A stretch of 64,000 nt of DNA, taken from an uncultured Bacteroidales bacterium. Lineage in GTDB: Bacteria; Bacteroidota; Bacteroidia; Bacteroidales; VadinHA17. The notes beneath the pieces are model-generated. The model worked only from the letters and a program-made list of their open reading frames with translations, did not search any database and was not told the DNA's origin. The translations under genes and the position numbers were made by a program. The DNA lies in the NCBI GenBank assembly GCA_963698535.1, contig CAVORD010000001.1, positions 1,895,823 through 1,959,822 on the forward strand. The letters run 5' to 3'. Below, piece after piece: positions 1-60,466 of the stretch; positions within the stretch are counted from its first letter, which is position 1, and every line of letters begins with the position of its first letter.

Positions 1-1023
1 TAACTGAAGGATTTCAGAACCTCTTGCCCTCAGATGCCATACCTGTCTATTTCATATTCCTGGAAACCGATCCGGCCACCATTGATGTAAATATACACCC
101 CACCAAAACAGAGATTAAGTTTGAAGAAGAGAGGGCGATATGGCAGATAGTACTGGCATCGGTAAGGGAGGCACTTGGTAAATTCAGCATTGTACCGCCA
201 ATGGATTTCGATGTGGAGGGATATCTTGATTTCCCGGTCAGGTCAGGCACATCGGTTCCCCCTCCTCCTGCCATTGAGATCAATACCTCCTTTAACCCAT
301 TTGGAAACGATTCAGTATATAACAGGTCATCGATCAGGTTTGACCAGAACGGCAGGTCAAAGAATGAGGGATGGGAAAACATATATCCCCCTTCCAGGGC
401 GAACAGGTAGTGGCGATGATGATGCAAAGGGACTGGATATTCCCAACAATGATATCGTCCGCCGATTTATGCAACTAAGGAACAAGTACATCCTATGCCC
501 GGTTAAATCGGGGCTCATGGTAATAGACCAGAAGAGAGCACATCAGCGTGTCCTTTACGAAAAATTTGCAGGTATACTTACGGAGAAAGGCAAATCATCG
601 CAGACAACCCTGTTCCCGGTTACAATAGACCTTAGTGCAGGTGATATGCTGGTTGTAGAAGAGATAAGCGACGCACTGGTTTCGCTGGGATTTGAGATAA
701 GACAACTTGGCAAAAACGAAATATCAGTAACAGGTATACCTGCCGATTCATGGAACCCCGACCCGGCAGAAATGGTAAAGATCCTGATAGAGGAATACAG
801 AGCATCCGACGGCAACAACGAAATGGGAACATTGGAAAGAGCTGCTGCATCTCTGGCAATGGCTTCATCGATCAATCATGGAACAGAACTCTCCCTTGAG
901 GAGATGTCAACGCTCTTTGACTCTCTTTTTGCCTGCAGCAACCCTAATTATTCGCCTTCAGGAAAACCAATAATTAATATTATTAGTACTGCTGAGTTGG
1001 AAAAGAGACTGGATAACCCGTGA
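1..1023 (+). pseudogene. mutL: DNA mismatch repair protein MutL, 3' portion (5' end outside window), interrupted by one frameshift
   Basis: Frame 3 from nt 3 reads ...ATIDVNIHPTKTEIKFEEE... (MutL transducer domain) and stops at TAG 408-410. Frame 1 then reads ...MQLRNKYILCPVKSGLMVIDQKRAHQRVLYE...CSNPNYSPSGKP (MutL C-terminal dimerisation domain) to TGA 1021-1023. The switch must lie between about 385 and 408, where there is a C5 run (387-391). Confidence 0.75.
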
Positions 1024-2820: not shown

Positions 2821-3909
2821 GTGCGGAAATTTATTAAGAAAATAGTACTACTGTTTAATCTAGCTTTTGCTATTGCACTGCTAATATCCTACCTCTCGGT
2901 AAGGATCAGTCCTGCCATATTTGTTTTCCCTGCTTATTTCGGACTTGCCTACCCATACCTTTTGATTATTAATGTTCTTTTCGGACTTCTATGGCTCTTC
3001 AGACTGAATCCGGAATTCCTTATCTCAGCCATAGCCATCTTCATCGGAGTTACACACCTTCAGAATAGCATCAAGGTTCACCGGCACAAAAGCCGATAGC
3101 TCAGAAAACTCATATAGTGTCGTAAGCTACAATCTCAGGCTTTTCAACCTTCTTGAAGGGTTCCTCTGCTGACTCCTCAGAGAAAGGGGTGCTCGATTTT
3201 CTGAAGGCTGAAAATGCCTCTGTTATTTCGCTGCAGGAATATTTCGTACAGGGGAGTACCGACTCTTAAGATTGCCGGTCTTAAAAAACACTTTGGCAGG
3301 GGAACATATACACATCAGAAATTCATCAAGGGACGTGACGGGAGGAATTATGGCAATATTATGATCTCCAGATTCCCGTCGTAAAAGAGGGGAAATAAAT
3401 TTCCCCGGATCATCATCAATTGCAATATATGCCGATCTTAAGATAAACGGTGATACAATACGGTTCTACAATATACACTTGCAATCATTCAGACTGAGGC
3501 GTATTGAAAACTCTTTCCTTGAGGAGATGACACTCGTTGAGCAGGATCAGTTTTACAGTGAGATCACTGACCTCTATGCAACACTTAAAAGAGGATTTGT
3601 AAAACGAGCAGAACAGTCACGAGATTCTGATGACACACATAGCCGGCTCTCCTTACCCTGTTATTGTTGCCGGCGACTTTAACGATACGCCGGTTTCATA
3701 CACATATCATAATCTCCGGCACAACCTCAATGATACTTTTGTGGATAACGGCCGTGGTCATTGGTTATACCTACAAAGGGAAATATCCGCCAAACAGAAT
3801 AGACTATATACTATATTCAGGCAAGCTTAAAAATACTGGCTTTACGATCCTCCGTGAGAAGTTCTCAGATCACTTGCCCATAAAGGCATCATTTAGTCGT
3901 GCTGACTAA
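2821..3909 (+). pseudogene. endonuclease/exonuclease/phosphatase (EEP) family protein with N-terminal TM segments, degraded by about 6 frameshifts
   Basis: EEP-like pieces occur in successive frames 1>2>0>1>2>0>1. They are a TM N-terminus (2821-3099), SYNLRLFN, ISLQEYF, NIMISRFP, IRFYNIHLQS, PVIVAGDFNDTP and NRIDYILYS...SDHLP. Each piece ends in a stop. Confidence 0.8.
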
Positions 3910-26159: not shown

Positions 26160-29100
26160 CTAAACTACACGATGACCAATAAAGAGTATGTCATCGATCT
26201 GTTTATTTTCACCCTTCCACTCCATAAGCTCTTCGGCCAGGATCTTTTTCTGCTCCTCAATTGGTTTTGACCATATCCTGAGAACAATATTCTTAATAGC
26301 CACGGTCTTCATCTTCTTCAGGTCAGGACCACCAAACTGGTCAGCATAACCGTCAGAGAAGAGATATACCATATCACCTTTCCTTAGCTGGAAATCCTGA
26401 CTGGTGAAATTGGTTCTGTTTTCCATCGATGCCATACCAATCGGGAATCTGTCGGCCTTAAGAACAGTAAGTTCACCTTCCCTCACTATAAATGCCGGGT
26501 TGTAAGCACCGGCGTAACTCATCATCAGACTCTTCTTGTCTATTACACTGAGTGATAGATCCATACCATCATTTACAACATTTTCATGCTGCTGAAGCAA
26601 TGACTTAACAACCTCCTCATGGAGGCGATCCAGTATTTTTCCGGATATATTCACCTTCTCCTCTTTTACAATACGGTTCAGTGAGTTATAGCCGATAATC
26701 GACATAAATGCACCAGGCACACCATGACCGGTACAGTCGACAGCAGAGATAAAAATCTTCTGGGTTGTTTCATGCAGCCAGTAGAAGTCACCACTTACTA
26801 TATCCTTCGGCATAAAGAGTATGAAAGTATCCTTAAAGCTATCTTCCGGCGGAAGCATCGCTCTCTGTATCCTTTCGGCATAACGGATGGAGGCGGTAAT
26901 ATCCCTGTTCTTTTCCTCGATCTCATGGCTCTTTAAAACAACTTCCGCTGTTCGTTCTTCCACCTTCTCTTCCAGTATCTTCTTCTCCACAACCAGTTTG
27001 TATTCCCTCATCCGTATATACAATATCACTGCCAATATTAAGAGTATCGCAACTGACGTTATGAACCAGGGGGTGAGATAGAATGGCGGACGAATAGTAA
27101 AAGAGTAGGTAACCGGCTCCTCGTTCCAGTAACCGGTACTGTTGGAAGCCTTTACCATGAAAGTATATTTCCCGGGAGTAAGGGCGGAATATATAGCCCT
27201 GGTCTGAGCTGTAACCGGACGCCATGTTGATTCTGCTCCCTCCAGCATTACCATATAACGTACCGATTTAGGATTATCGAGACATACACTGTAATAGTCA
27301 AAAGCTATGGCTCTCTCTTTATAGTTCAGCTTCATACCATCGGTCATATGACGAGGCTGGTAATTGATCAGCATCCTCCTGATATGAGTTGCCGGACTCG
27401 TTCTAACCGGGGGAAACAGTTCTGTATCCAACCTGGTCACTCCGTTGGCAGTACCAAACCATAGCCTGCCCCTGGAGTCAATAAATGAGGCATGATTCCT
27501 TGCTTCAATGCCGGTAAATCCGTTCTCCTCAGTAAAGGTAGAGATCACCTCTGTTCCTGCCTCAAGCCTGTTAAGACCCTGGTTAGATCCGATATACAAA
27601 TTCCCGGAAGGATCGGAAATGAGTGAGGTTATATTATTTGATAACAGTCCATTTTCAGCAGTGTAATGACCTGCGATTGTATCTTTGTCAAGGACCTTAA
27701 GACCGCTTGTTGACCCTACCCAGATCCTTCCGTCAGGTGTTTCGGTAATTATTTTGGGAATATGTCCCTCTCCGATATCAACAATAACAAACTTGTCTTT
27801 AGCATTATCATAGCGGGTGATCCCAACAGCTCTTTCCGTTCCGATCCAGGTATCGCCATTGCTGTCACAGAACAGGGAGATAACGCCATTTCCCGAAAGG
27901 CCGTCGCCCTGTGTATATCTTCTTCCGGCTCCTTCTTTAATGCTCCATCGAACAACTCCGTCATTTGTCCCAACCCAAAGGATACCATTCTTGTCAATAT
28001 CAAGGGCTTTGATAACTCCATCGGAATATAGAAGAGAGTTCAAATGAGTATCATATATGAATTTACCTGTTCCCGGCGTAAACATGAATAGCCCGTCGCC
28101 GTCTGTCCCAAGCCATATTTCGCCATTCAAACCCTTTTTGAGAAACCTCACTTTATTGCCAATAATATATTTGGGTTCATTGAAGAATTTAGGTGTAATC
28201 ATCTCAGCATCGGGATTAAAAAAGGACAAGCCCTTATTTGTCCCGAACCAGAATCCCCCGTTATTATCTTCTTCAATAGCCCAAACATTGTTGTCAGGCA
28301 GAACCGATTCACCCGTATAGGTTTTAAAATGATCTCCCTTGTATATTCTTAATCCGACATAGTTATCGGTAATGAGTATGTTGTTTTCATGATCCTGCAA
28401 TATACTCTGCACAAAAAGAGCATCAAGCCCGTTGGAAAGACCAAAAGAGTGTATCTCCTTACCACGGATAACGGATACTCCTCCACCCCATGTTCCAACC
28501 CATATATCTCCTCGATAATCTTCTGTAATACAGGTAACCCAGTTTTTAGCCAGTCCGTCCCTCTTGTCAAAGACATTATACAGTTCACCTTGAGGCGATA
28601 GCTTATACAAACCTCCGTTGTAGGTGCCGAACCAAAAGTTATTGTTACTGTCCTCAAACATCGATATTACAGCAAAATATTTTGTAAGTCCCGCTGGCAG
28701 ATATGTCTCAAATCTGTCTGATAATTCGACATATTTTCTTATTCCCAGATCGGCAAGGCAATAGAGGTTGCCCTGGCTGTCAACAAATGAATTATGCACC
28801 TGATCGCTGAGTCCTTCTGCTCCGGCATATTGATTTCCAACCAGCAGATTATCTTCCATTCCGGGATTGCCAAATCTGAAGACCCCGTTACCGGAGGTAG
28901 TAACCCAAATATAACTTCCTGCTTGTCGAATAGAGGTAATGTCTCCTGTTAGTTTGAAATTATCAACTTCCATCCTGTGGAAGAGATCACCGTCGAATAG
29001 CGAAATACCACCATTGAGGTGCCCAAACCAAACTCTTCCCTCATCATCCAGAGACATGCATTTTACTCCCCCGACGGAAATCCCGTCTTCAAAGGAATAA

Positions 29101-29333
29101 TTCTCGAAATTTATCCCGTCAAACCTCGACACACCGCTCTCTGTACCAAGCCAAATGTTATCTCTTTGGTCCTGAAGGGAACAATAGACCTTAGAAGAAC
29201 CAAGCCCTTCTTCTGCCCCGTATTTGCTGAAATGGGTTGTCTGGGCATGGAGTAATAAGCCCGTAAAACAAAAGGCAAGGCATAACATTAAGTATGCCCG
29301 GCCTCCTTTTTTCAATCTTAATATGATTCCCAT
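26160..29333 (-). CDS. transmembrane sensor: periplasmic two-component-regulator propeller repeats + Y_Y_Y domain + TM + coiled coil + PP2C/SpoIIE phosphatase
   Basis: Repeated W(F/V)GT..G(L/V) propeller blades. Y_Y_Y block VRYMVMLEGAESTWRP...YTFMVKASN, then a TM helix. SpoIIE motifs SGDFYW, DCTGHGVPGAFMS, DGMD, FSDGYADQFGG. The probable ATG at 29333 follows the upstream stop by 2 nt. Confidence 0.85.
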   Translation of the reverse strand: MGIILRLKKGGRAYLMLCLAFCFTGLLLHAQTTHFSKYGAEEGLGSSKVYCSLQDQRDNIWLGTESGVSRFDGINFENYSFEDGISVGGVKCMSLDDEGRVWFGHLNGGISLFDGDLFHRMEVDNFKLTGDITSIRQAGSYIWVTTSGNGVFRFGNPGMEDNLLVGNQYAGAEGLSDQVHNSFVDSQGNLYCLADLGIRKYVELSDRFETYLPAGLTKYFAVISMFEDSNNNFWFGTYNGGLYKLSPQGELYNVFDKRDGLAKNWVTCITEDYRGDIWVGTWGGGVSVIRGKEIHSFGLSNGLDALFVQSILQDHENNILITDNYVGLRIYKGDHFKTYTGESVLPDNNVWAIEEDNNGGFWFGTNKGLSFFNPDAEMITPKFFNEPKYIIGNKVRFLKKGLNGEIWLGTDGDGLFMFTPGTGKFIYDTHLNSLLYSDGVIKALDIDKNGILWVGTNDGVVRWSIKEGAGRRYTQGDGLSGNGVISLFCDSNGDTWIGTERAVGITRYDNAKDKFVIVDIGEGHIPKIITETPDGRIWVGSTSGLKVLDKDTIAGHYTAENGLLSNNITSLISDPSGNLYIGSNQGLNRLEAGTEVISTFTEENGFTGIEARNHASFIDSRGRLWFGTANGVTRLDTELFPPVRTSPATHIRRMLINYQPRHMTDGMKLNYKERAIAFDYYSVCLDNPKSVRYMVMLEGAESTWRPVTAQTRAIYSALTPGKYTFMVKASNSTGYWNEEPVTYSFTIRPPFYLTPWFITSVAILLILAVILYIRMREYKLVVEKKILEEKVEERTAEVVLKSHEIEEKNRDITASIRYAERIQRAMLPPEDSFKDTFILFMPKDIVSGDFYWLHETTQKIFISAVDCTGHGVPGAFMSIIGYNSLNRIVKEEKVNISGKILDRLHEEVVKSLLQQHENVVNDGMDLSLSVIDKKSLMMSYAGAYNPAFIVREGELTVLKADRFPIGMASMENRTNFTSQDFQLRKGDMVYLFSDGYADQFGGPDLKKMKTVAIKNIVLRIWSKPIEEQKKILAEELMEWKGENKQIDDILFIGHRVV

Positions 29334-29337
29334 AATT

Positions 29338-31681
29338 CTACTTCTTAAGGATAAAGAAGAACGTTCCATCTTCATCCTTAAGCCCGGTAATCTTGCCGAA
29401 TTTTGGTTTCTGCAGATTATTCCCGCCAACAGCACCTGAAACTTTGGTAACTATCTCCTCAATTGGGATACATGCATTTGGATTATTTGCGAGCGAATTG
29501 GCAAAGGTCCTCGTAAACTGGCTGTCGTCCAGCGCAAGTTCGTAGCCGGCTGATGAAAAGACCTGCGACGACTTGAACTGTGTTGATTGCCAGTCGTCAC
29601 AACTACGCTGCTTTATCTCCGATCTCATTGCCTGGTAAAAACTTGGCCCCGACTCGCAGGCATCTGTAACTACCAGGGTATGTGTCAGATAGTTCACATA
29701 AGGTTCCATCGAGGCCCGTAAACCTCCAATATTGTAATATGTAAATTCATCGTCCCTTTTCGCATCGACAGGGATCCAGTAACCAACATCATTGATAAAT
29801 TTTCCATGGCCTGCATACCATATCAGCAGTGACTTAACCTGATTTGCTTTAATAAGGTCGCGAAGCTCTATCGAGAAGAACTTCTCCATCTCATCCTTCT
29901 TCATATCCTTCTTGTGGATGATATTATGGATCTCATAATTAGTCAGGGCTCTCTTCATCAGGTTAATATCTTTAATCGGACCGTCGAGACTGGCAAAGGT
30001 CGAGTAGTTGGAATTTTCAATAAAGACAACCCATGTCTTACCCATTGGGTTGCTTTCTGAAAGGACTGCACCCTCCCTGTTTAATGTGAACTCGGTACTT
30101 TTCTTGTTACCGTAAATATCCTCTGCAATAACCGCAATTTTATTTTTATTCATTACATCGATGGTTGCCGTAAACCCCGGATTGAGATCATTCATCGAAT
30201 AGCTTGCTGTAACTCCTTCAATGAAAATTGTCTTAATCCGGCTCTCATCCGACACTTTACCTTCAATAAAGATATTGGGGTTGTTGTTGTTCAGATATAT
30301 CTGACCGTCGTCGGAAGCATAAGGAGTGAGTATGGTAACCTTTGGCGGATTGACCTCAGTACGGTTCATCCCCAACTTAATGACCTTCTCATTCTTATAT
30401 ACATCACGGGCGATAATGTTAACAGAATTTGTACCCTCGGTTGATACTGTAGCAAGAAATTCATATTCATCACCTTTCCGTCTCAAAATGAACATCCTTG
30501 TCGTTTATCCTGAAAGATTCCAGATCACTTTTCTCCCTTATTTTTCCGGCAATCAGAAAATCCTTTGCATCACCGCGAACTTCAATTACATTTTCTGAAG
30601 GAATCGGAGAGGACAGAATTATTTCGGGTGGTACACTTTCTCTGTTTATCTCGAAAAGTCGCTTCCTTGCCTCAGCCAGGTTCTTTCTTGCCTTCATATC
30701 GAATTCCGACAGCTCCGTTATCTTTTCATAATCGGCCGCAGCAAGGGCAAAGTTCATCGTCTCTTCATTCGATTTTGCTCTGGCAAAATATGCGTCAGGA
30801 TCATTGGGCCTCAGCTGGATCACCTTATTGAAATCGTTAATAGCATTGCCATGCTGATTGAACCTCTGATAATAAGTGCCTCTCAGGAAATAGTGGGCAG
30901 GATTATCAGGCTCAATAAGAATGTTTTTTGAAACATCATTTATGGCATTCGGGAAATCCATACTGTTGACATAGATACGGCTTCGGGTGGAATATGCGGC
31001 GACATTCTTGTCGTTAGCCTCTAAAACTGTATTGCAATGACCAAGAGCCTCGCCCAGTTTACCCTCCCTGATAAGTATTTCGGCAAGTTCCAGTCTGGCA
31101 CTGTGCATTGTTTTCTCCTTAGAGAGAGCCTTCTCGAACTCTTTCTTCCCCATGATATCATTATTCAGGAGTACGTATACTCTCCCTTTCATGAAGAGGT
31201 TTTCAGCCGACTCCTTGAATAATATTGCAGTATCTGCAGTGCGCAATGCCTGGTCGTACTTCTGAAGTCCGATCATGGCAATTACCTTCTCCGGGTATAC
31301 TGCACCATTTCTTTTGTCAACCGACGATGCTGTGTTAAGCCTTAGAAGAGCCTCGTCGAATTTACCCAGCTTATTGCATACCCTTCCCAGTCCGAGCATT
31401 ATGTCTGACTCATTAGGATCAAAAACCAGGGCTTTTTCAAAATCGGCATATGCGAGCTCCATCTGACCTCCATTCTCATAGGCAATAGCCCTTGACACAT
31501 AACCTTCGGATTTGGTAGGCTCCATCTCAATGGCCTTTGAGTATTCTGCAGCGGCCTCATTGTATTTCTCACTCTTGAGAAGCGCATCACCCGCCTTAAG
31601 AAACTTTTTGGCACTTTGTCCCTCAGCAATGAGTGATACCGATGTTACAAACAGAAGGAAAAATATTAATCGCTTTTTCAT
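29338..31681 (-). pseudogene. secreted TPR-repeat / tandem Ig-like repeat / caspase-like (peptidase C14) protein, split by one +1 frameshift near 30470-30495
   Basis: ORF 30470-31681 has a signal peptide plus about 8 TPR repeats. ORF 29338-30495 has the caspase His/Cys dyads LIWYAGHG and VVTDACESG. A roughly 90-aa repeat (PPEIILSS... / PPKVTILT...) straddles the ORF junction, so both ORFs derive from one reading frame. Confidence 0.7.
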
Positions 31682-45063: not shown

Positions 45064-46347
45064 CTAATAAACACGGTACCCTGAAAATGAGCCGGTACCT
45101 GATTCAGACGAGGAACCAGTGTTAATCCGAACTGTTACATACTGACCTGCATTAAGCTTAATTGTAATAGAGCGATGCAAAAGCATGCCTTGATTAATAC
45201 CTGTTTGAAGTGTTTCGTATAAAAACCCGTCAACATAGACATACAATTTCCTTACATCGCCGATACCTGTAGCATTAAATCCAATATTAAAGGTGTAAAT
45301 TCCGGCTAAAGGTGCTGTAAATCTTCCAGTATTGGGATCATAAGATAAAGAACTGTCATACTCTTCCCCGTCAGCAATGAAATCATAATCAGTAACAAAA
45401 CTCAACCCGGTTACTGAGACAGTCCTCTTCGCCCTAAACGCCACCATATTGCTACTCAGGTTAACACTTTTCGTAACACCTCCCTCAACGATTTCGAGGT
45501 TTGTTCCGTTTACTCTGACATCTGTAATTGCTTCATTTGTAGGATCAGCATCAGCATCATTTTTCAGCTCCGACAGGTCGATCTTAGCCGTCGAATTACT
45601 TATCCCTATCAGCCTGTTTCCTGCGTCCCAGTTAAGGGTCTGGTTATAAGGATTGAGATTAATTGAGTCCGGAGAAGCCAATTTGGTTACCTTAAGATAA
45701 TGGTTAACGAGTTTCAGGTCCTGTAACTCATTCGTCGGGTCAAAGTCAGCATCATTCTTAAGTGATGTAAGGTCGACCTCATTGATTTTTATTCCGCCAA
45801 TCTTACTTAATATTGATAATATGTTACCATCAAACGACAGTGCCTGATCATCAGTGGCAGGATCTCCCGGATCTCCCTTCGGCCCTGCCGGTCCAGGTGT
45901 TCCCGGTATTCCCTGCGGTCCTGGTTCCAGCGACTTTAAAGCATAGAGAGCATAGGGGACAGCCATGAACTGCATGGTCCCCATCTCCAGGAAATCATTG
46001 GCAAATTTTATCTCAACCTTCAGATAGTGGTTCAGACTGCCCCAGTCGATCTGGCCAAATGTTACCGATCCGCCAGTGGGCGTGCCCTTACCCACTATAA
46101 GGGAGAATACTCCATATTTCGAGGTCTTGACACCGGAATGTAACTCCTCATAGACCACCGTTCCCAGGGGACTGCCGGAGAGGATCGTAAACTTTACCGA
46201 AAGGTCCTTGTCTGCAAGCTCCCTGCCCGTATTATCTCTGGCCACAGCCTGATAGTGTATCCCGGCAGGTACATTTTGTGCTTCCAATATTCCCGGGACT
46301 GCGGAGAACAACAGTACTGCTAATAATATGGAGAATAACCTTTTCAT
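45064..46347 (-). CDS. secreted protein with collagen-like Gly-X-Y stretch and C-terminal C1q/TNF-like jelly-roll domain
   Basis: Signal peptide. GPQGIPGTPGPAGPKGDPGDP (7 G-X-Y triplets). Two NDAD.DPTNE repeats. C-terminus ...GRFTAPLAGIYTFNIGF...YVTVRIN... Confidence 0.65.
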   Translation of the reverse strand: MKRLFSILLAVLLFSAVPGILEAQNVPAGIHYQAVARDNTGRELADKDLSVKFTILSGSPLGTVVYEELHSGVKTSKYGVFSLIVGKGTPTGGSVTFGQIDWGSLNHYLKVEIKFANDFLEMGTMQFMAVPYALYALKSLEPGPQGIPGTPGPAGPKGDPGDPATDDQALSFDGNILSILSKIGGIKINEVDLTSLKNDADFDPTNELQDLKLVNHYLKVTKLASPDSINLNPYNQTLNWDAGNRLIGISNSTAKIDLSELKNDADADPTNEAITDVRVNGTNLEIVEGGVTKSVNLSSNMVAFRAKRTVSVTGLSFVTDYDFIADGEEYDSSLSYDPNTGRFTAPLAGIYTFNIGFNATGIGDVRKLYVYVDGFLYETLQTGINQGMLLHRSITIKLNAGQYVTVRINTGSSSESGTGSFSGYRVY

Positions 46348-49990: not shown

Positions 49991-50575
49991 ATGAACCTTA
50001 GCCTGAAAGAGATATTTGCAACCTTCATGGTTCTTTTTGCAATAATCGATATTCCCGGATCGATCCCTATTATATTGGATATCAAGTCAAAAACAGGAAA
50101 TATCCAGCCTGCAAAAGCAACACTGGTGGCTCTCGGTATTTTCCTGGCTTTCCTTTTTATAGGCGCCCCACTACTGAGAATCTTTGGTATCGATGTCTCC
50201 TCATTCGCCATTGCCGGCTCATTTATCATTTTTATTCTTGGAACAGAGATGGTGATGGGGATTGAGCTCTTCAAACATGATGCTCCCGGAGGTGGAACAA
50301 TAGTACCTATTGCATTCCCACTGATAGCAGGAGCCGGCTCTATTACAACGATCCTGTCACTCAAAGCCGACTACCAGACAGAGAATATACTTATCGGGCT
50401 TCTTCTCAATATGGGCGTGGTCTACCTTGTCCTCCGTATGACATCCACTTTTGAAAAAATACTGGGAGAAGCCGGACTGCATATTCTGAGAAAATTCTTT
50501 GGTATAATACTGCTTGCCATCGCAATAAAACTGTTCACGTCAAACACTGGCATACAACTGGGCGATGGCAATTGA
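49991..50575 (+). CDS. MarC family (UPF0056) integral membrane protein
   Basis: Six TM helices. ATG 49991 gives [26 protein letters not shown]. Confidence 0.8.
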
Positions 50576-51048
50576 TGTTATACTATATACCGATGGTGCT
50601 GCCAGTGGAAATCCCGGACCGGGTGGTTACGGACTGGTGCTTATTTCGGGCAAGCACAGGCTGGAAAAATCAGGCGGGTTTCGACTTACAACCAACAACA
50701 GAATGGAACTGTTGGCGGTTATTGAAGGACTCGAATCGCTTAAAGTAAAGGGACTGCAATGTGACCGTTTACACCGACTCAAAATATGTTTCCGAAGCGG
50801 TGAACCAGGGCTGGCTCTTTGGTTGGGAGAAAAAGGGCTTTGCCAAAAAGAAAAACCCCGATCTCTGGAAAAGATTCCTGATCTCATACAGGAAGCATAC
50901 TGTTAAGTTTATATGGATAAAAGGCCATTCCAACATCCCTGAGAATGAAAAATGCGACAGGCTTGCAGTAGAAGCATACCATAAAAGTGATCTCCCAGAT
51001 GACGCCGGCTACGACCCTAATACCGATAAAGGTGACCTCTTCGCCTGA
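50565..51048 (+). pseudogene. rnhA: ribonuclease HI interrupted by one +1 frameshift (about 50749-50761)
   Basis: N-terminal half in one frame ([17 protein letters not shown]...[18 protein letters not shown]). C-terminal half in the +1 frame ([10 protein letters not shown]...IWIKGHSNIPENEKCDRLA). No homopolymer at the junction. Confidence 0.75.
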
Positions 51049-52293: not shown

Positions 52294-54926
52294 ATGAAAA
52301 AGCTAACAGCCCTGCTGATTCTGTTACTAACCATTACATCGTTATGGGGGCAAACAACCAAGAAGAGATACAAAATAGAGCGCACCGATACACCCCCTTC
52401 GATAGATGCTATTCTCGACGACGCAGCATGGGAAAAAGGAAACTGGTCGGGTGACTTCTGGCAATTTGAGCCCTACGATAACCTCCCACCGTCGCAACCA
52501 ACAGAATTCAAACTCCTTTATGATGATTCATTCATCTATTTCGCCGTTAAATGTTATGATTCCTCACCCGACAGTATCATTAACAGGATGACCAGGCGCG
52601 ATAATGTTGAAGGTGACTTTGTTGGTGTAATGTTCGACAGTTATCACGACCTTAGAACCAGTTTTTCATTTTTTGTCAGCTCTTCAGGGGTTAAAATGGA
52701 TATTATCCACTCCAGCAACGGTCAGAGCGAAGATCCCACATGGGATCCTATCTGGATGGTTAAAACTCAGATCTACGACTGGGGATGGGTTGCGGAAGCA
52801 AAGATCCCGTTTACCCAGTTAAGGTTCAACTCAAGTTCACGGGAAGTATGGGGCTTTGAAGTAACCAGAATGATCTACCGCTTCAATGAAATGAGTATTT
52901 GGAACCCTATTCCCAATACAGCGCCGGGATTTGTTCATATGTTCGGAGAACTTGATGGACTTCAGGGTGTTAAGCCAAGGAAGCAACTCGACCTTACACC
53001 GTTTGTAGTTGCCGGATTCGACAAATACGAGAAGGAAGATGGGAACCCATTTGCCACAGGTTTCGACTTCAAACGCAATATAGGACTTGACGGCAAAATA
53101 GGGATAACAAACAACCTAACACTCGACTTTACGATCAGTCCCGACTTTGGGCAGGTGGAGGCCGACCCCTCGGAAGTTAACCTCAGTGCGTTTGAAACAT
53201 TCTACGAGGAGAAGAGACCATTCTTTATTGAAGGGAAAAACATTACCAGCTTCAAGACAGGTATTGGCGATGGTGATATCGGTAACGATAATCTGTTTTA
53301 CTCACGCAGGATCGGGCGCAGACCATGGGGATACCCCGATCTTAATTCCGGGGAGTATGCTGATGTCCCTACCCAAACAAGTATTATTGGTGCAGCCAAA
53401 TTAACCGGGAAAACAGAGAACGGATGGTCGATAGGTGTAATTGAGAGTGTTGCAGCTGAGGAATTCGCCAAAATCGACAATAACGGTACGGTAAGAAAAG
53501 AATCGGTAGAGCCCCTCACAAACTATTTTGTGGCACGACTGCAGAAGGATGCAAACAAAGGAAATACAATTATCGGGGGTATGTACACAAATACCCTGCG
53601 CGATCTCGATACAGTAAGTGTTGATTATCTTCACAAAACGGCACATACCGGAGGAATTGACTTTTCACAGTTCTTCAAGGATAAAAACTATGTCTTCCAG
53701 GCTAATATGGCTGTCAGTAAGGTGTATGGTTCAGAAGAGGCCATCGACAGGACCCAGAAATCATCAAGAAGGTATTTTCAGCGACCCGATAATGATTATG
53801 TCGATTATGATCCTGCCAAGAACCTCACTTTCTGGACATGGCGGAAATATCTCAATTTGGAAAATAGGTGGCAACTGGAACTTTATGATTTTCAACCTTT
53901 GGAAATCACCCGGATTTGAACTAAATGATCTTGGCTACCTAAGAGATGCCGACCAGATACTTAATGTTGTGTGGTCGGGATATAACATTAACCAGCCTTT
54001 CAGTATATTCAGGAATATGCGGTTTAATTTCAACTTGTGGAACGGATGGGATTTCGGAGGGGTATATCATGGTATCGGTGGTAACATTAACATTAATACA
54101 CAGTTCAAGAACTACTGGAGATTAAGTACCGGAATCAACCGCGATGGAGAATCACTCGTTAACGGTTTCCTGAGAGGAGGACCGGCAATGCTGCATCCGG
54201 GAGGTAGCAATTATAATATTTTCCTGGGAACCGACGACAGGAAGAAATTAAACTTCACTATTAATTCCAATTTTAACAAAACCGATGATGATGCCGGTGA
54301 ATCGCTGAGGTTAGGATTAGGAATTACCTACAGGCCTGTCAATACACTCAGGATAAGTCTGAATCCGGCCTATTCCAGATCATCATCTGAACTACAATAT
54401 ATTACAGATCTATCCTTTGGTTCGGATGATAGGTACATCTTCGGGGCTATTGACCAGAAAGTTCTTAGCATGTCGCTCAGGATAAACTATAATCTGACCC
54501 CCGATCTTACAATCCAGTATTGGGGTCAGCCCTTCATTGCAAGCGGGAAATATTCAAGAATAAAGATGATAACAAATACCCCACAGGCTGAAAGTTTCGG
54601 CGACAGATTCTATACTTTTTCCGGTACTGAAATAGGATATGACGCAGGGGCGGGGGAATATCTTATTGACGAAGACAACAATGGCTCTACAGATTACAGA
54701 GTGGAGAATCCAAACTTCAACGTCAGTGAGTTCCTCTCCAACTTTGTGGTCAGATGGGAGTTTGTTCCGGGATCCACTGTTTACCTGGTATGGTCGCAGA
54801 CGCGAGGAGCATAGCAACGATTCAGGCATTATGAAGTTTGGCGACGATATCGACGATCTTTTCTCGGTAAATAAACCTTACAACACCGTCCTGCTGAAAT
54901 TCTCATACCGGTTTGGATTGAGATAA
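52294..54926 (+). pseudogene. DUF5916 / CBM9-like outer-membrane-associated protein, two +1 frameshifts (about 53825 and about 54805)
   Basis: Three consecutive ORFs in frames 1>2>0 continue one protein: ...DYDPAKNLT | LSGHGGNISIWKIGG... and ...VYLVWSQTR | EEHSNDSG.... Confidence 0.7.
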
Positions 54927-55319: not shown

Positions 55320-55850
55320 ATGTTTATAAAGAAAACAACCCTGCTGATCGCCCTGATAGTAATGATGGGAGCAACTGTATCAGCACAGACATTTAAGTAC
55401 ATCGGTGCTGACAAGTGTAAAATGTGTCACAACAAACCAGCAACCGGTGAACAGTACAAAAAGTGGACAGAGGAGAGCCATTCAAAGGCTTTAAAATCTC
55501 TCTCCAACCCTGCTTCTCTGGAGTATGCAAAGAAGAACGGTATTGCCGATCCAGCAAAAGAGCAGAAGTGTCTTAAGTGCCACTCCACTTTCCATTCAAT
55601 TGATGCAAAACTTCAGGGAGGAATCCTGCCTTACGAAGGTGTTTCATGCGAATCATGCCATGGACCAGGCAGTGCTTACAAGGCTCCAACAATTATGAAA
55701 GACCAGGCTCTATCAATTAAGAATGGCCTTATAGTACCAACCAAGGAGACTTGCGTTGCATGCCACAATAAAGAGAATCCTTTCTACAAGGAGTTTAACT
55801 ATGAGGCAGCTCTGAAGAAAATCGCTCATCCTAATCCTGCTGCCAAGTAG
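55320..55850 (+). CDS. secreted tetraheme c-type cytochrome
   Basis: Signal peptide and four CxxCH motifs (CKMCH, CLKCH, CESCH, CVACH) in 176 aa. Confidence 0.85.
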   Translation: MFIKKTTLLIALIVMMGATVSAQTFKYIGADKCKMCHNKPATGEQYKKWTEESHSKALKSLSNPASLEYAKKNGIADPAKEQKCLKCHSTFHSIDAKLQGGILPYEGVSCESCHGPGSAYKAPTIMKDQALSIKNGLIVPTKETCVACHNKENPFYKEFNYEAALKKIAHPNPAAK

Positions 55851-55874
55851 TATTAGCTTAAGATATAAGATAAA

Positions 55875-55911
55875 GAACCCCATAACCGAAAGGTTACGGG
55901 GTTCTTTTTTT
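55875..55911 (+). terminator. Rho-independent terminator after the cytochrome gene
   Basis: 13-bp stem (one mismatch) GAACCCCATAACC/GGTTACGGGGTTC with a GAAA loop, followed by T7. Confidence 0.85.
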
Positions 55912-55952
55912 GTGCAAAGAATGGTCTTTACCAGTCCCTGAAAGGTTAATGT

Positions 55953-56132
55953 CTACTTTTTCCAGTCGGCAATTATTATTTTATCACCAACCAGCTTAAC
56001 ATCAAGTTTTTGCTTGGCTCTCCACCCCAATTTTACAATATATTCCCTGGGTATGGTAAGGGCATAGCTGCTCCCGCCGGCTGTTTTCTGCAGACTGCGG
56101 ATGTTTCGCTCTTCAGATTTCCTGTTTGCCAT
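55953..56132 (-). CDS. AbrB/MazE/SpoVT-type DNA-binding domain protein (59 aa; below the ORF-track cutoff)
   Basis: My own translation: MANRKSEERNIRSLQKTAGGSSYALTIPREYIVKLGWRAKQKLDVKLVGDKIIIADWKK*. This is the swapped-hairpin pattern (GGSSYALTIP...LG...L.V...GD.III). Confidence 0.6.
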   Translation of the reverse strand: MANRKSEERNIRSLQKTAGGSSYALTIPREYIVKLGWRAKQKLDVKLVGDKIIIADWKK

Positions 56133-56160
56133 AGTTTAATAATTATGTAATTAATTATAT

Positions 56161-58152: not shown

Positions 58153-58500
58153 GAGTTCTGTTTTTTATTTGGTTTATGAAGAAGAAACATCATGAAGATT
58201 ATTTTGTTCATATTTTTGTTCGTTTATTTAGTCATTTATACTGCTAAACAGGTTCTATAGTGGCTTATTCTATACCATATATACTTGATTATTTGTCTAT
58301 TACAGTATGTTAAAAAAATTTATATTATTTTATATTTTTTTCTGTATTTTTATTCATTTGTCATATTGACATCATAAATTCCACCTTGTTTTACAGGGTC
58401 ATTACCCCTCGTAATCTTCTTTATTCTCTTTTTCCCTACGGCTGAAGCCAGTGGAATTTGTATTAAAATATTAAAAGGGCATTAGCCCAATATATAAGTG

Positions 58501-58568
58501 GTGGTGGATTAGCTTCGGTGATCCTGGAGGGGGTGATCAATAAACAATAGCCCGTTAGTGCCTGCGGG
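58501..58568. repeat. diverged copy A of an approximately 66-bp repeat family (GGATTA..CGGTGATCC...GCCCGTTAGTGCCTGCGG)
   Basis: Aligns with 58678-58746. An 18-nt identical core at 58550-58567 matches 58727-58744, offset exactly 177 bp. Confidence 0.6.
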
Positions 58569-58677
58569 GATTTTCTTTCCAGCCGGTCGCAAATTTCTTG
58601 TATAGTCAAATGCCGTTGGCTTAAGCCAATGGCATAAGTGTTGTGATGTTAAGAGGACTTCAGTCCAATAAATATGT

Positions 58678-58746
58678 AACGCGGATTACCTCCGGTGATC
58701 CGGTCTGGGGTGGCCATTCAACAAAAGCCCGTTAGTGCCTGCGGCA
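58678..58746. repeat. copy B of the same approximately 66-bp repeat family
   Basis: See copy A. Its 5' motif GCGGATTACCT recurs at 59344-59354. Confidence 0.6.
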
Positions 58747-58836
58747 CTTCGCGGGTTTGTTTCATTGCCCGCTCATGCAAGCATGGCGGGCATGAAATAA
58801 AAAACCCGCCAGCGAAGCTGAACGGGCTTTTGTTGA
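58718..58836 (-). other. approximately 120-nt rod-like nested hairpin immediately 3' of tRNA-Cys
   Basis: Outer perfect 16-bp stem: 58718-58733 pairs with 58821-58836. Middle stem CTTCGC+GGGTTT pairs with AAACCC+GCGAAG. Inner stem GCCCGC/GCGGGC. Apex CATGC-AA-GCATG. Confidence 0.55.
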
Positions 58837-58906
58837 GGTCGGTGGCGGATTCGAACCGCCGTACCTGGTTTTGCAGACCAATGCCTAGCCACTCGGCCAA
58901 CCGACC
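58836..58906 (-). tRNA. tRNA-Cys (anticodon GCA)
   Basis: Minus-strand 71 nt. Acceptor stem GGTCGGT/ACCGACC, anticodon stem TTGGT/ACCAG, loop CTGCAAA, T-arm GGCGG-TTCGAAT-CCGCC. No encoded CCA. Confidence 0.9.
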
Positions 58907-59263
58907 CTGATTATATAACTCTTGTACATTAAAGAACATCTTCTTCACCCCCTTGGGTGGCGGATTGCTCATCATCTCCTTCAGACATGCTTCGCGAGCT
59001 CTCTCCTTTCAGTCGTTCGGTTCGAACCGCCTTTGCCACTCCTGTCCGCCGAAGCTTTAGCGAAGGCGGGCGGCCAACCGACCCTGATTATATAACTCTT
59101 GTACATTAAAGAACATCTTCTTCACCCCCTTGGGTGGCGGATTGCTCATCATGTCCTTCAGACATGCTTCGTGAGCTCTCTCCTTTCAGTCGTTCGGTTC
59201 GAACCGCCTTTGCCACTCCTGTCCGCCGAAGCTTTAGCGAAGGCGGGCGGCCAACCGACCCTG
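58895..59263 (-). repeat. 177-bp tandem repeat (2 full units + 15-bp partial) derived from the tRNA-Cys gene and its upstream flank
   Basis: Units 58895-59071 and 59072-59248 differ at 2 positions (58976 C/G, 58995 C/T). Each unit carries the tRNA 5' end CGGCCAACCGACCC and both T-arm halves (GGTGGCGGATT ... TTCGAACCGCC), separated by a 53-nt insert. Confidence 0.85.
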
Positions 59264-59471
59264 TGCTCCGTAGCTCAAAGAGCGAAGGAGTACCATATAA
59301 TAGTTATCAAAAACTCAAAAGAACAATTCTGCCTCCCGCCCCGCGGATTACCTTGTCCCGTTTTACCGGGTCCTGGCAAACTTAACGTTCGAGGTGCAAA
59401 AATAACAAAAATCGGATAATAACAAGTCACAATTGATTGTTACAGATAATTACCGGGACAGGACCCTGATC

Positions 59472-59880
59472 CTACTTCTCCACAATGGTTAGACAATAAC
59501 AGGTTTCTCCGGCATACACATCTATCCAGTACTCCTTGCCTCCTTTCTTTAGCGTGAGTGTCGACTGGTTGCCGCCAAACTCATAAACCACTCTGCCTCC
59601 GGCACTCTTTATCATGCTTGCATGACTCTCAAGCACCTTCGAGGGAACAGTCTTTGTCGTCGACTCATAGTAGATGTAGGTCAAGACTACCCTCCACTTT
59701 GCTCGTAACATTGAGGCCGGTTTTAAACGCATGCTCACCGGGATCCTCATTGTAATAGTCGGTTATCGTGTAGCCTTTCATCCGACCAAACAGAACGTGA
59801 TCTTTACTTCCTTCCATGTCCTGTGCCCTGAGCACTAAGGGAAGAAAAATAACCAGCATAAAAATGATTGATCTTTTCAT
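59472..59880 (-). pseudogene. small secreted protein, split by one +1 frameshift (about 59690)
   Basis: ORF 59665-59880 has a signal peptide and ...GLNVTSKVEG. ORF 59472-59750 continues in the +1 frame as ...VVLTYIYYESTTK.... The junction lies at a GGG run. Confidence 0.55.
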
Positions 59881-59987
59881 GACTCAATTATTATGTAACA
59901 AGTAGCGTATACCTGACATAAATTTATGCAAAAAAAAGATGACCAAATGAATCTTTGATCATCTTTTAATGTGATAATATAACTGAC

Positions 59988-60338
59988 TTATCTGGTGATG
60001 GATACAGATACCGATCCTATCTTACCGCCCATGGGTGGGTTCATTTTTCTTATCTTTACTGTCGCCTTGCCTATACCAGGCATCTCACGGTGAAGTGAGT
60101 CAAGAATACGAGATGCAACATGTTCAAGAAGCTTCGAGGTTACTTTCATCTCATTGCTTACTACCCGGTAGGCAATCTGATAATCGGCAGCATCAGATAG
60201 TGCGTCGGAGAGAGCAGCCTTATCAGTGTCGGTCTCAAATTCCAGGTCAACAATGAACTTGTTGCCGGTGAGCTGCTCCTCCGCGAAATGGCCGTGCAGC
60301 GACTGAAACTCCATTCCTTCTATCCTTATTGTTCCCAT
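59988..60338 (-). CDS. folB: dihydroneopterin aldolase
   Basis: ATG 60338 gives MGTIRIEGMEFQSLHGHFAEEQLTGNKF..., about 116 aa. Confidence 0.85.
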   Translation of the reverse strand: MGTIRIEGMEFQSLHGHFAEEQLTGNKFIVDLEFETDTDKAALSDALSDAADYQIAYRVVSNEMKVTSKLLEHVASRILDSLHREMPGIGKATVKIRKMNPPMGGKIGSVSVSITR

Positions 60339-60466
60339 AAGTATTGAAAATAAAAGACTAAAGTACTTAAAGTGAGCCAAAGTTTAAAAAGTAAAAGGCT
60401 CCGTCCTCCGACATTGTCAGACGTAGCTTTAGCAAAATCTGAAGTTTTAACGAAGGAGGATTGCAA

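Follow-up and report, generated by a model that had tools for sequence, protein, structure and literature searches.

Frameshift alleles of mutL and mutS that produce a mutator state occur in clinical Pseudomonas, E. coli and Salmonella, where they have been confirmed by resequencing and by phenotype. Mismatch repair can also be switched on and off, by a 6-bp repeat within mutL in Salmonella and by excision of a prophage-like element at mutL in Streptococcus pyogenes. The mutL gene at the start of the window, by which we mean the whole 64-kb stretch of DNA analysed here, resembles both groups in outline. As in the clinical alleles, a frameshift at a G/C run would truncate MutL ahead of its dimerisation domain, and as in the two switches, the activity of a repair gene might in principle be toggled by a repeat within it. 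It differs from the clinical alleles in that it rests on one consensus sequence which carries other implausible frameshifts, and from the switches in that its run of five C residues (C5) is short, common and not conserved in the nearest relative. The match to natural mutator alleles and to repeat-based switches is superficial only.

Indel errors in long-read or poorly polished assemblies offer another comparison, and closed genomes built from long-read metagenomes are known to suffer from frameshift errors (bioRxiv 10.1101/2020.03.12.974238). As with such errors, conserved genes in the window are turned into adjacent ORFs while the genes are otherwise intact, and the breaks are private to the assembly; unlike them, the lesions here are clustered (0.4–3.8 kb and 50.7–54.8 kb) and not evenly spread. 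Homopolymer deletions are associated with nanopore consensus sequences, whereas the lesions described here are insertion-dominated, with such deletions in the minority. We find that the mutL split is probably a sequencing or assembly consensus error and not a mutation of the organism.

The frame switch in the mutL linker

The window begins within the last third of mutL; the rest of the gene, which would carry the N-terminal GHKL ATPase domain, lies upstream, outside the window. The mutL features are as follows.

3–410, + strand: end of the mutL transducer domain, frame 3 (translation, PF01119, and frame-3 HSPs from 79 orthologues)
387–402, + strand: interval holding the one extra base of mutL, net +1 (WExLY motif and register with the relative L081)
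403–1023, + strand: mutL linker and complete MutL_C dimerisation domain, frame 1 (PF08676, stop TGA 1021–1023)
526–561, + strand: MutL motif II, reading DQKRAHQRVLYE (alignment to orthologues and to 3gab)

The frame-3 piece matches PF01119 (DNA_mis_repair) over profile positions 62–118 of 119 and runs into a premature TAG at 408–410, the reading ending ...GWENIYPPSRANR. Frame 1 is open from 175 to the TGA at 1021–1023 and carries PF08676 (MutL_C) complete, over positions 2–142 of 142, with both Pfam matches above the cut-offs. PF01119 followed by PF08676 is present, and one continuous reading frame is absent. The source's own gene call for this region, P0001, is the frame-1 product, a protein of 219 residues that starts at ATG 364, is 100% identical to the window and is carried by a single contig of 2,148,961 bp, held in NCBI and ENA. 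Removal of one C from the CCCCC at 387–391 gives ...WENIYPLPGRTGSGDDDAKG... and restores a single ORF, exactly as had been predicted. The transducer and MutL_C domains are separated by one net +1 shift where the flexible linker begins. With mutL repaired in this way as the query, we recover ~3,000 MutL homologues at E ≤ 1e-3, the best non-self matches being ~53% identical over 99% of the query.

Eighty MutL orthologues from Bacteroidales reference genomes were aligned to the window by tblastn, and 79 of them give at least two HSPs on mutL. A colinear switch from frame 3 to frame 1 near position 400 is seen with 78 of the 80, the HSPs running in frame 3 to about 386 and in frame 1 from about 400–460. 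This alignment of both frames to orthologues, which the original prediction had named as a check, agrees with the Pfam matches in upholding the predicted split, with frame 3 read to TAG 408–410 and frame 1 onward. The frame switch is not due to chance, and a net +1 shift is present in the deposited sequence.

The position of the extra base can be bounded on both sides. Below, the conserved WE(N/K)(L/I)Y motif (WENIY in the window) ends at 386 and is followed by variable linker; above, the L081 linker, which is uninterrupted, matches the window in register from nucleotide 403 ('aCAGGTaGT'), and the extra base therefore lies within 387–402. The interval includes the C5 run at 387–391 as well as GGG at 397–399. 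We take C5 as the likeliest site because a random 16-nt interval overlaps a C/G run of five or more only ~1% of the time (our own estimate, from 40 such runs in 64 kb), with GGG 397–399 or a non-repeat base also possible; one orthologue, P0006 ('WENLYPPSG'), aligns slightly better with the shift after 395. The shift had been described as adjoining the C5 run, and this holds to the extent that the run falls within the interval; the placement itself is to 387–402, with C5 a candidate and not a proven site.

The relative that supplies the upper bound, L081 (ENA ERZ25039508 contig_70067, 5,980 bp; protein P0123), was found with the frame-3 fragment as query, in a search that did not return an N-terminal MutL ORF from the source itself. 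It has the gene order mutL–rhomboid–rhomboid–EEP in common with the window, where EEP denotes a gene of the endonuclease/exonuclease/phosphatase family, and the amino acid identities between the two are 88% for rhomboid 1, 80% for rhomboid 2, 66% for MutL and 64% for EEP. The L081 linker is uninterrupted and reads tac cat ggt atg gct at the C5-equivalent position, with no C run, and the proposed search of related genomes for variation in the run accordingly ends with a tract that is not conserved in the closest relative. L081 has nine frameshifts of its own between 838 and 3499, about six in mutL and three in rhomboid 1, mostly single-base insertions and with eight of the nine net +1, while its EEP gene and rhomboid 2 are intact; reciprocally, the window mutL and rhomboid 1 are intact at the positions of the L081 frameshifts. 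In these public assemblies of the clade, the breaks are private to each assembly, and L081 has the appearance of noisy long-read sequence. No same-species sequence emerged from scans of genomes and metagenomes or from protein searches, the nearest being 52–53% identical, apart from L081 (66% in MutL).

Conservation of MutL and its C-terminal motifs

On both sides of the shift, the window MutL is well preserved: among 77 full-length orthologues 41 columns are invariant, and it retains all but one of them. At columns conserved in 90% or more of the orthologues, there are 5 mismatches in 40 upstream of the shift and 4 in 53 downstream, mostly conservative ones. With 40 of 41 invariant columns kept, any inactivation of mutL would therefore be very recent, and purifying selection acted on the gene up to, at most, the very recent past.

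The sole invariant column that is missed is a Glu-to-Gln change in motif II (codon CAG, 544–546), and this Gln aligns with B. subtilis E468, a metal ligand. Across the 161 loci scanned, the position is Glu in 153 other loci in which the motif was found, and Gln in L081 (DQRRAHQRILFE, at about 2180–2215 of its contig) and the window only. We considered the change as a sign of decay and ruled this out, since L081, with a MutL that is 66% identical, shares the Gln. The comparison indicates that the motif-II Gln is an old, selected trait of the clade, neither an error nor a product of recent relaxation.

Endonuclease-type MutL proteins are defined by a motif II of the form DQHA(X)2E(X)4E and a motif V of the form C(P/N)HGRP, with metal ligands (PMC2965676). 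The frame-1 product aligns over its full length with the C-terminal domains (CTDs) of B. subtilis MutL (3gab/3kdk) and N. gonorrhoeae MutL (3ncv), with E values of 1e-18 and 1e-11, and shares the domain order of these endonuclease-type domains. It departs from them in the motifs themselves: where they have DQHA(X)2E(X)4E and CPHGRP, the window has DQKRAHQRVLYE and SPSGKP. In the 3gab alignment, the positions of B. subtilis H464, E468, C573, C604 and H606 are occupied by K, Q, A, S and S in the window MutL, and by K, E, A, S and a variable residue in the wider Bacteroidales MutL family. As a separate observation, the C-terminal domains of the Bacteroidales MutL proteins (loci L001–L161) read IDQKRAHERI(L)(F/Y)E and SPxGKP, and compared with the B. 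subtilis MutL-CTD the family is without H464, C573, C604 and H606, which are four of the five Zn ligands.

The C-terminal region had been labelled a dimerisation and endonuclease domain at the outset. The first half of that label stands, with a complete MutL_C dimerisation domain, while the second sits poorly with a Bacteroidales family that is without most of the canonical metal ligands. By domain content the window protein is a MutL, and its motif sequences place it outside the canonical endonuclease type.

Further frameshifts in the window

Broken genes were located by a codon-usage frame scan, Pfam and frameshift-aware protein-to-DNA alignments. Of the roughly 55 genes in the 64 kb, four (mutL, EEP, rnhA and a DUF5916 gene) are interrupted, in each case by frameshift alone, and beyond mutL we find at least 10 indel lesions in the other three conserved genes, which are located as follows.

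2821–3909, + strand: EEP-family gene, six net +1 frame changes (frameshift-aware alignments)
50565–51048, + strand: rnhA (RNase HI), frame 3 to frame 1, one extra base at about 50745–50754 (PF00075, alignment)
52294–54926, + strand: DUF5916/CBM9 gene in three ORFs, two extra bases (PF19313, alignment to 3 orthologues)

The EEP gene changes frame at about 3079, 3162, 3255–3258, 3375–3387, 3623 and 3760, that is, six times within 680 bp. It is nonetheless full-length and colinear with its orthologues, with no in-frame stop and no large deletion (6 orthologues and L081), it is identical to the intact L081 copy at 230 of 358 positions (64%), and it retains catalytic-region motifs, for example SPYPVIVAGDFNDTPVSY and YPPNRIDYIL. 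Every single-base repair was enumerated against the L081 protein. At three sites (3255–3258, g3623 and a3760) the best repair removes a base with a run length of 1, and at two further sites the removed base lies in a run of 1–2. The site at 3375–3387 is ambiguous, two 1-nt deletions scoring best, ahead of one 2-nt deletion and then one insertion. The total comes to seven indels in a gene that is otherwise undamaged. An old EEP pseudogene was considered and is ruled out by the absence of stops and deletions, by the retained motifs and by insertions at non-repeat sites.

In rnhA, PF00075 is split between profile positions 3–57 on one ORF and 59–139 on the next, in an A3/G3 context, and the region of the break was also aligned to E. 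coli RNase HI. The DUF5916 gene shifts from frame 1 to frame 2 at about 53815–53819 ('gccaaga') and from frame 2 to frame 3 at about 54803–54809 ('cgaggagc'), with PF19313 positions 4–233 and 225–526 on successive ORFs. In frameshift-aware alignments it is 53–58% identical to three orthologues across the aligned length, and P0125, a 309-aa gene call of the source, corresponds to one of its fragments. Just downstream of the DUF5916 gene, at 55320–55850 (+), lies a 176-aa multihaem cytochrome (c554/c7-like). Separately, two abutting ORF fragments at 59475–59883 (−), just downstream of folB (59991–60383), have coding potential in frames differing by +1 and no Pfam match, and may represent a further split gene.

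Many long reading frames in the window are unbroken, among them dnaE (1172 aa), a TonB-dependent receptor (1020 aa), a 1091-aa regulator, the H+-pyrophosphatase, both methylmalonyl-CoA mutase subunits and GlnRS/GluRS, and errors in the sequence are therefore not uniformly dense.

The lesions have a distinctive direction and context. Every one of the 10 frame changes, that in mutL among them, is net +1 (two-sided binomial probability ~0.002). At least three EEP insertions fall outside any homopolymer, and the other lesions are mostly insertions at runs of 1–3 bases. None of the 75 homopolymers of six or more bases in the window coincides with a mapped lesion, and the 40 C/G runs of five or more in the 64-kb window are nearly all inside intact ORFs. 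Indels of biological origin cluster in repeats and in bacteria are also biased towards deletion, and when mismatch repair is lost it is chiefly the longest runs that slip more often. Insertion sites outside repeats are not those favoured by slippage or by mismatch-repair loss, and the window lesions show no mutator-like excess of homopolymer slippage indels. What they do show is frameshifts, in one direction and at non-repeat sites, that recur in several conserved genes of this one sequence and are unlike biological mutation; the broken genes remain colinear with their orthologues and have neither in-frame stops nor large deletions. This spectrum, of one-direction insertions that are often outside repeats, with seven indels in one gene, is a consensus-error signature.

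Origin of the extra base in mutL

In the explanation we favour, the mutL split would stem from one base wrongly inserted into the assembled consensus, probably a C4 called as C5. Further single-base indels, for the most part insertions, would be scattered over the source contig and interrupt otherwise well-conserved genes, and the organism would encode one continuous MutL of about 600 aa. An assembly error is probable because three other conserved genes carry extra-base frameshifts of a kind rare in real mutation, and the mutL lesion would be part of the same error process as the other frameshifts in the window. The assembly-private breaks of L081 and the preserved invariant columns of MutL favour the same reading. 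Other observations count against it. Long ORFs in the window are unbroken, and the genome is small. The mutL lesion is isolated, as the EEP cluster is 2.7 kb away and the rhomboid genes in between (1.6 kb) are intact, and it coincides with a C5 run, which is also an expected site of genuine slippage, whereas several EEP lesions have no such coincidence. The original prediction had itself named assembly error as the case that would overturn it, and the other window frameshifts and their indel spectrum point there.

The same prediction had proposed that truncation of MutL makes this a mutator lineage. A real, recent C4-to-C5 slippage in the linker, leaving an ATPase/transducer fragment without the dimerisation domain and the organism a mismatch-repair-deficient natural mutator, is unlikely. 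It would be consistent with the C5 run in the lesion interval, a plausible slippage site found there by chance only ~1% of the time; with the small genome (2.15 Mb), as reduced genomes sometimes lose mismatch repair; with a MutL that may be functionally atypical, given the clade's Gln in place of an otherwise invariant motif-II Glu; and with the several other frameshifted genes in the window, as a mutator might show. Those accompanying frameshifts, however, are unlike the products of a mutator, with insertions outside repeats, a net change that is always +1 and long homopolymers that are untouched, and a mutator does not readily account for seven indels in one otherwise pristine gene, EEP. The retention of 40 of 41 invariant residues across both halves of MutL also argues against it, and the Glu-to-Gln change, being shared with L081, is an old trait of the clade and not decay. 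The mutator claim is thus undercut by at least 10 other indel lesions, with frame changes that are all net +1 and several sites outside repeats. It seems quite improbable that the frameshift is genuine, that MutL was recently lost in a Bacteroidales of the Gln clade with a 2.15-Mb genome, and that some of the other frameshifts are its consequence.

A functional split is very improbable. Here the break would be bridged by a ribosomal +1 shift, for example at AGG-TAG 405–410 or at the C run, or the gene would encode two cooperating proteins, the C-terminal one from ATG 364. The break coincides exactly with the beginning of the disordered linker, where MutL would suffer least from being cut; shifting by +1 on the stop codon yields a continuous ...PPSRANR-SGDDD; and ATG 364 opens a C-terminal ORF that a gene caller has used. 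MutL function, however, needs the N-terminal domains tethered to the C-terminal dimer. A conserved split is found in none of about 160 orthologous loci, all of which are continuous across the linker, and the L081 linker is likewise continuous, without a comparable site. The EEP shifts at 3623 and 3760 are far from the old-frame stop, so the window lesions have no common recoding signal. A general scheme in which all shifts occur at stop codons, as in +1 recoding of the Euplotes or prfB type, was also tried; it suits mutL and several EEP sites but fails at 3623 and 3760, because there the conserved sequence switches frame far upstream of the old-frame stop.

The suggestion that the C run is a phase-variable contingency locus, acting as a reversible mismatch-repair switch, is barely credible and can be set aside: a homopolymer does lie inside the lesion interval, but it is only five bases long where phase-variable tracts typically have at least 7–8 G/C, it is one of 40 C/G runs of five or more in the window and so neither long nor unusual for the genome, and it is not conserved in L081, where the linker is uninterrupted and the corresponding site has no tract.

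A genuine frameshift would identify a wild lineage deficient in mismatch repair, with a bearing on the evolution of mutation rate in small-genome uncultivated bacteria. On the consensus-error reading that we prefer, the main value of the locus is cautionary, as consensus indels would then interrupt conserved genes on the contig. Some of the gene calls made on it are fragments, among them the 219-aa 'MutL' P0001 and the 309-aa DUF5916 protein P0125, and inference of pseudogenes or of a mutator from this contig is unsafe before polishing.

Several other features of the window can be recorded. A stretch of 1.3 kb at 58165–59470 is nearly free of ORFs and contains only a tRNA-Cys (58835–58906, −), with nothing else from Rfam. 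At 55716–56135 (−), a 60-aa ORF of the MazE/AbrB antitoxin type (55956–56135) is followed by a 79-aa ORF without a family match, and the two may form a small toxin–antitoxin pair. Three adjacent genes at 26160–31681 (−) encode a TPR protein, a caspase-domain (Peptidase_C14) protein and a 1091-aa protein, which has Reg_prop, Y_Y_Y and SpoIIE-phosphatase domains, and a 427-aa protein with a C1q domain at its C-terminus is encoded at 45064–46347 (−).
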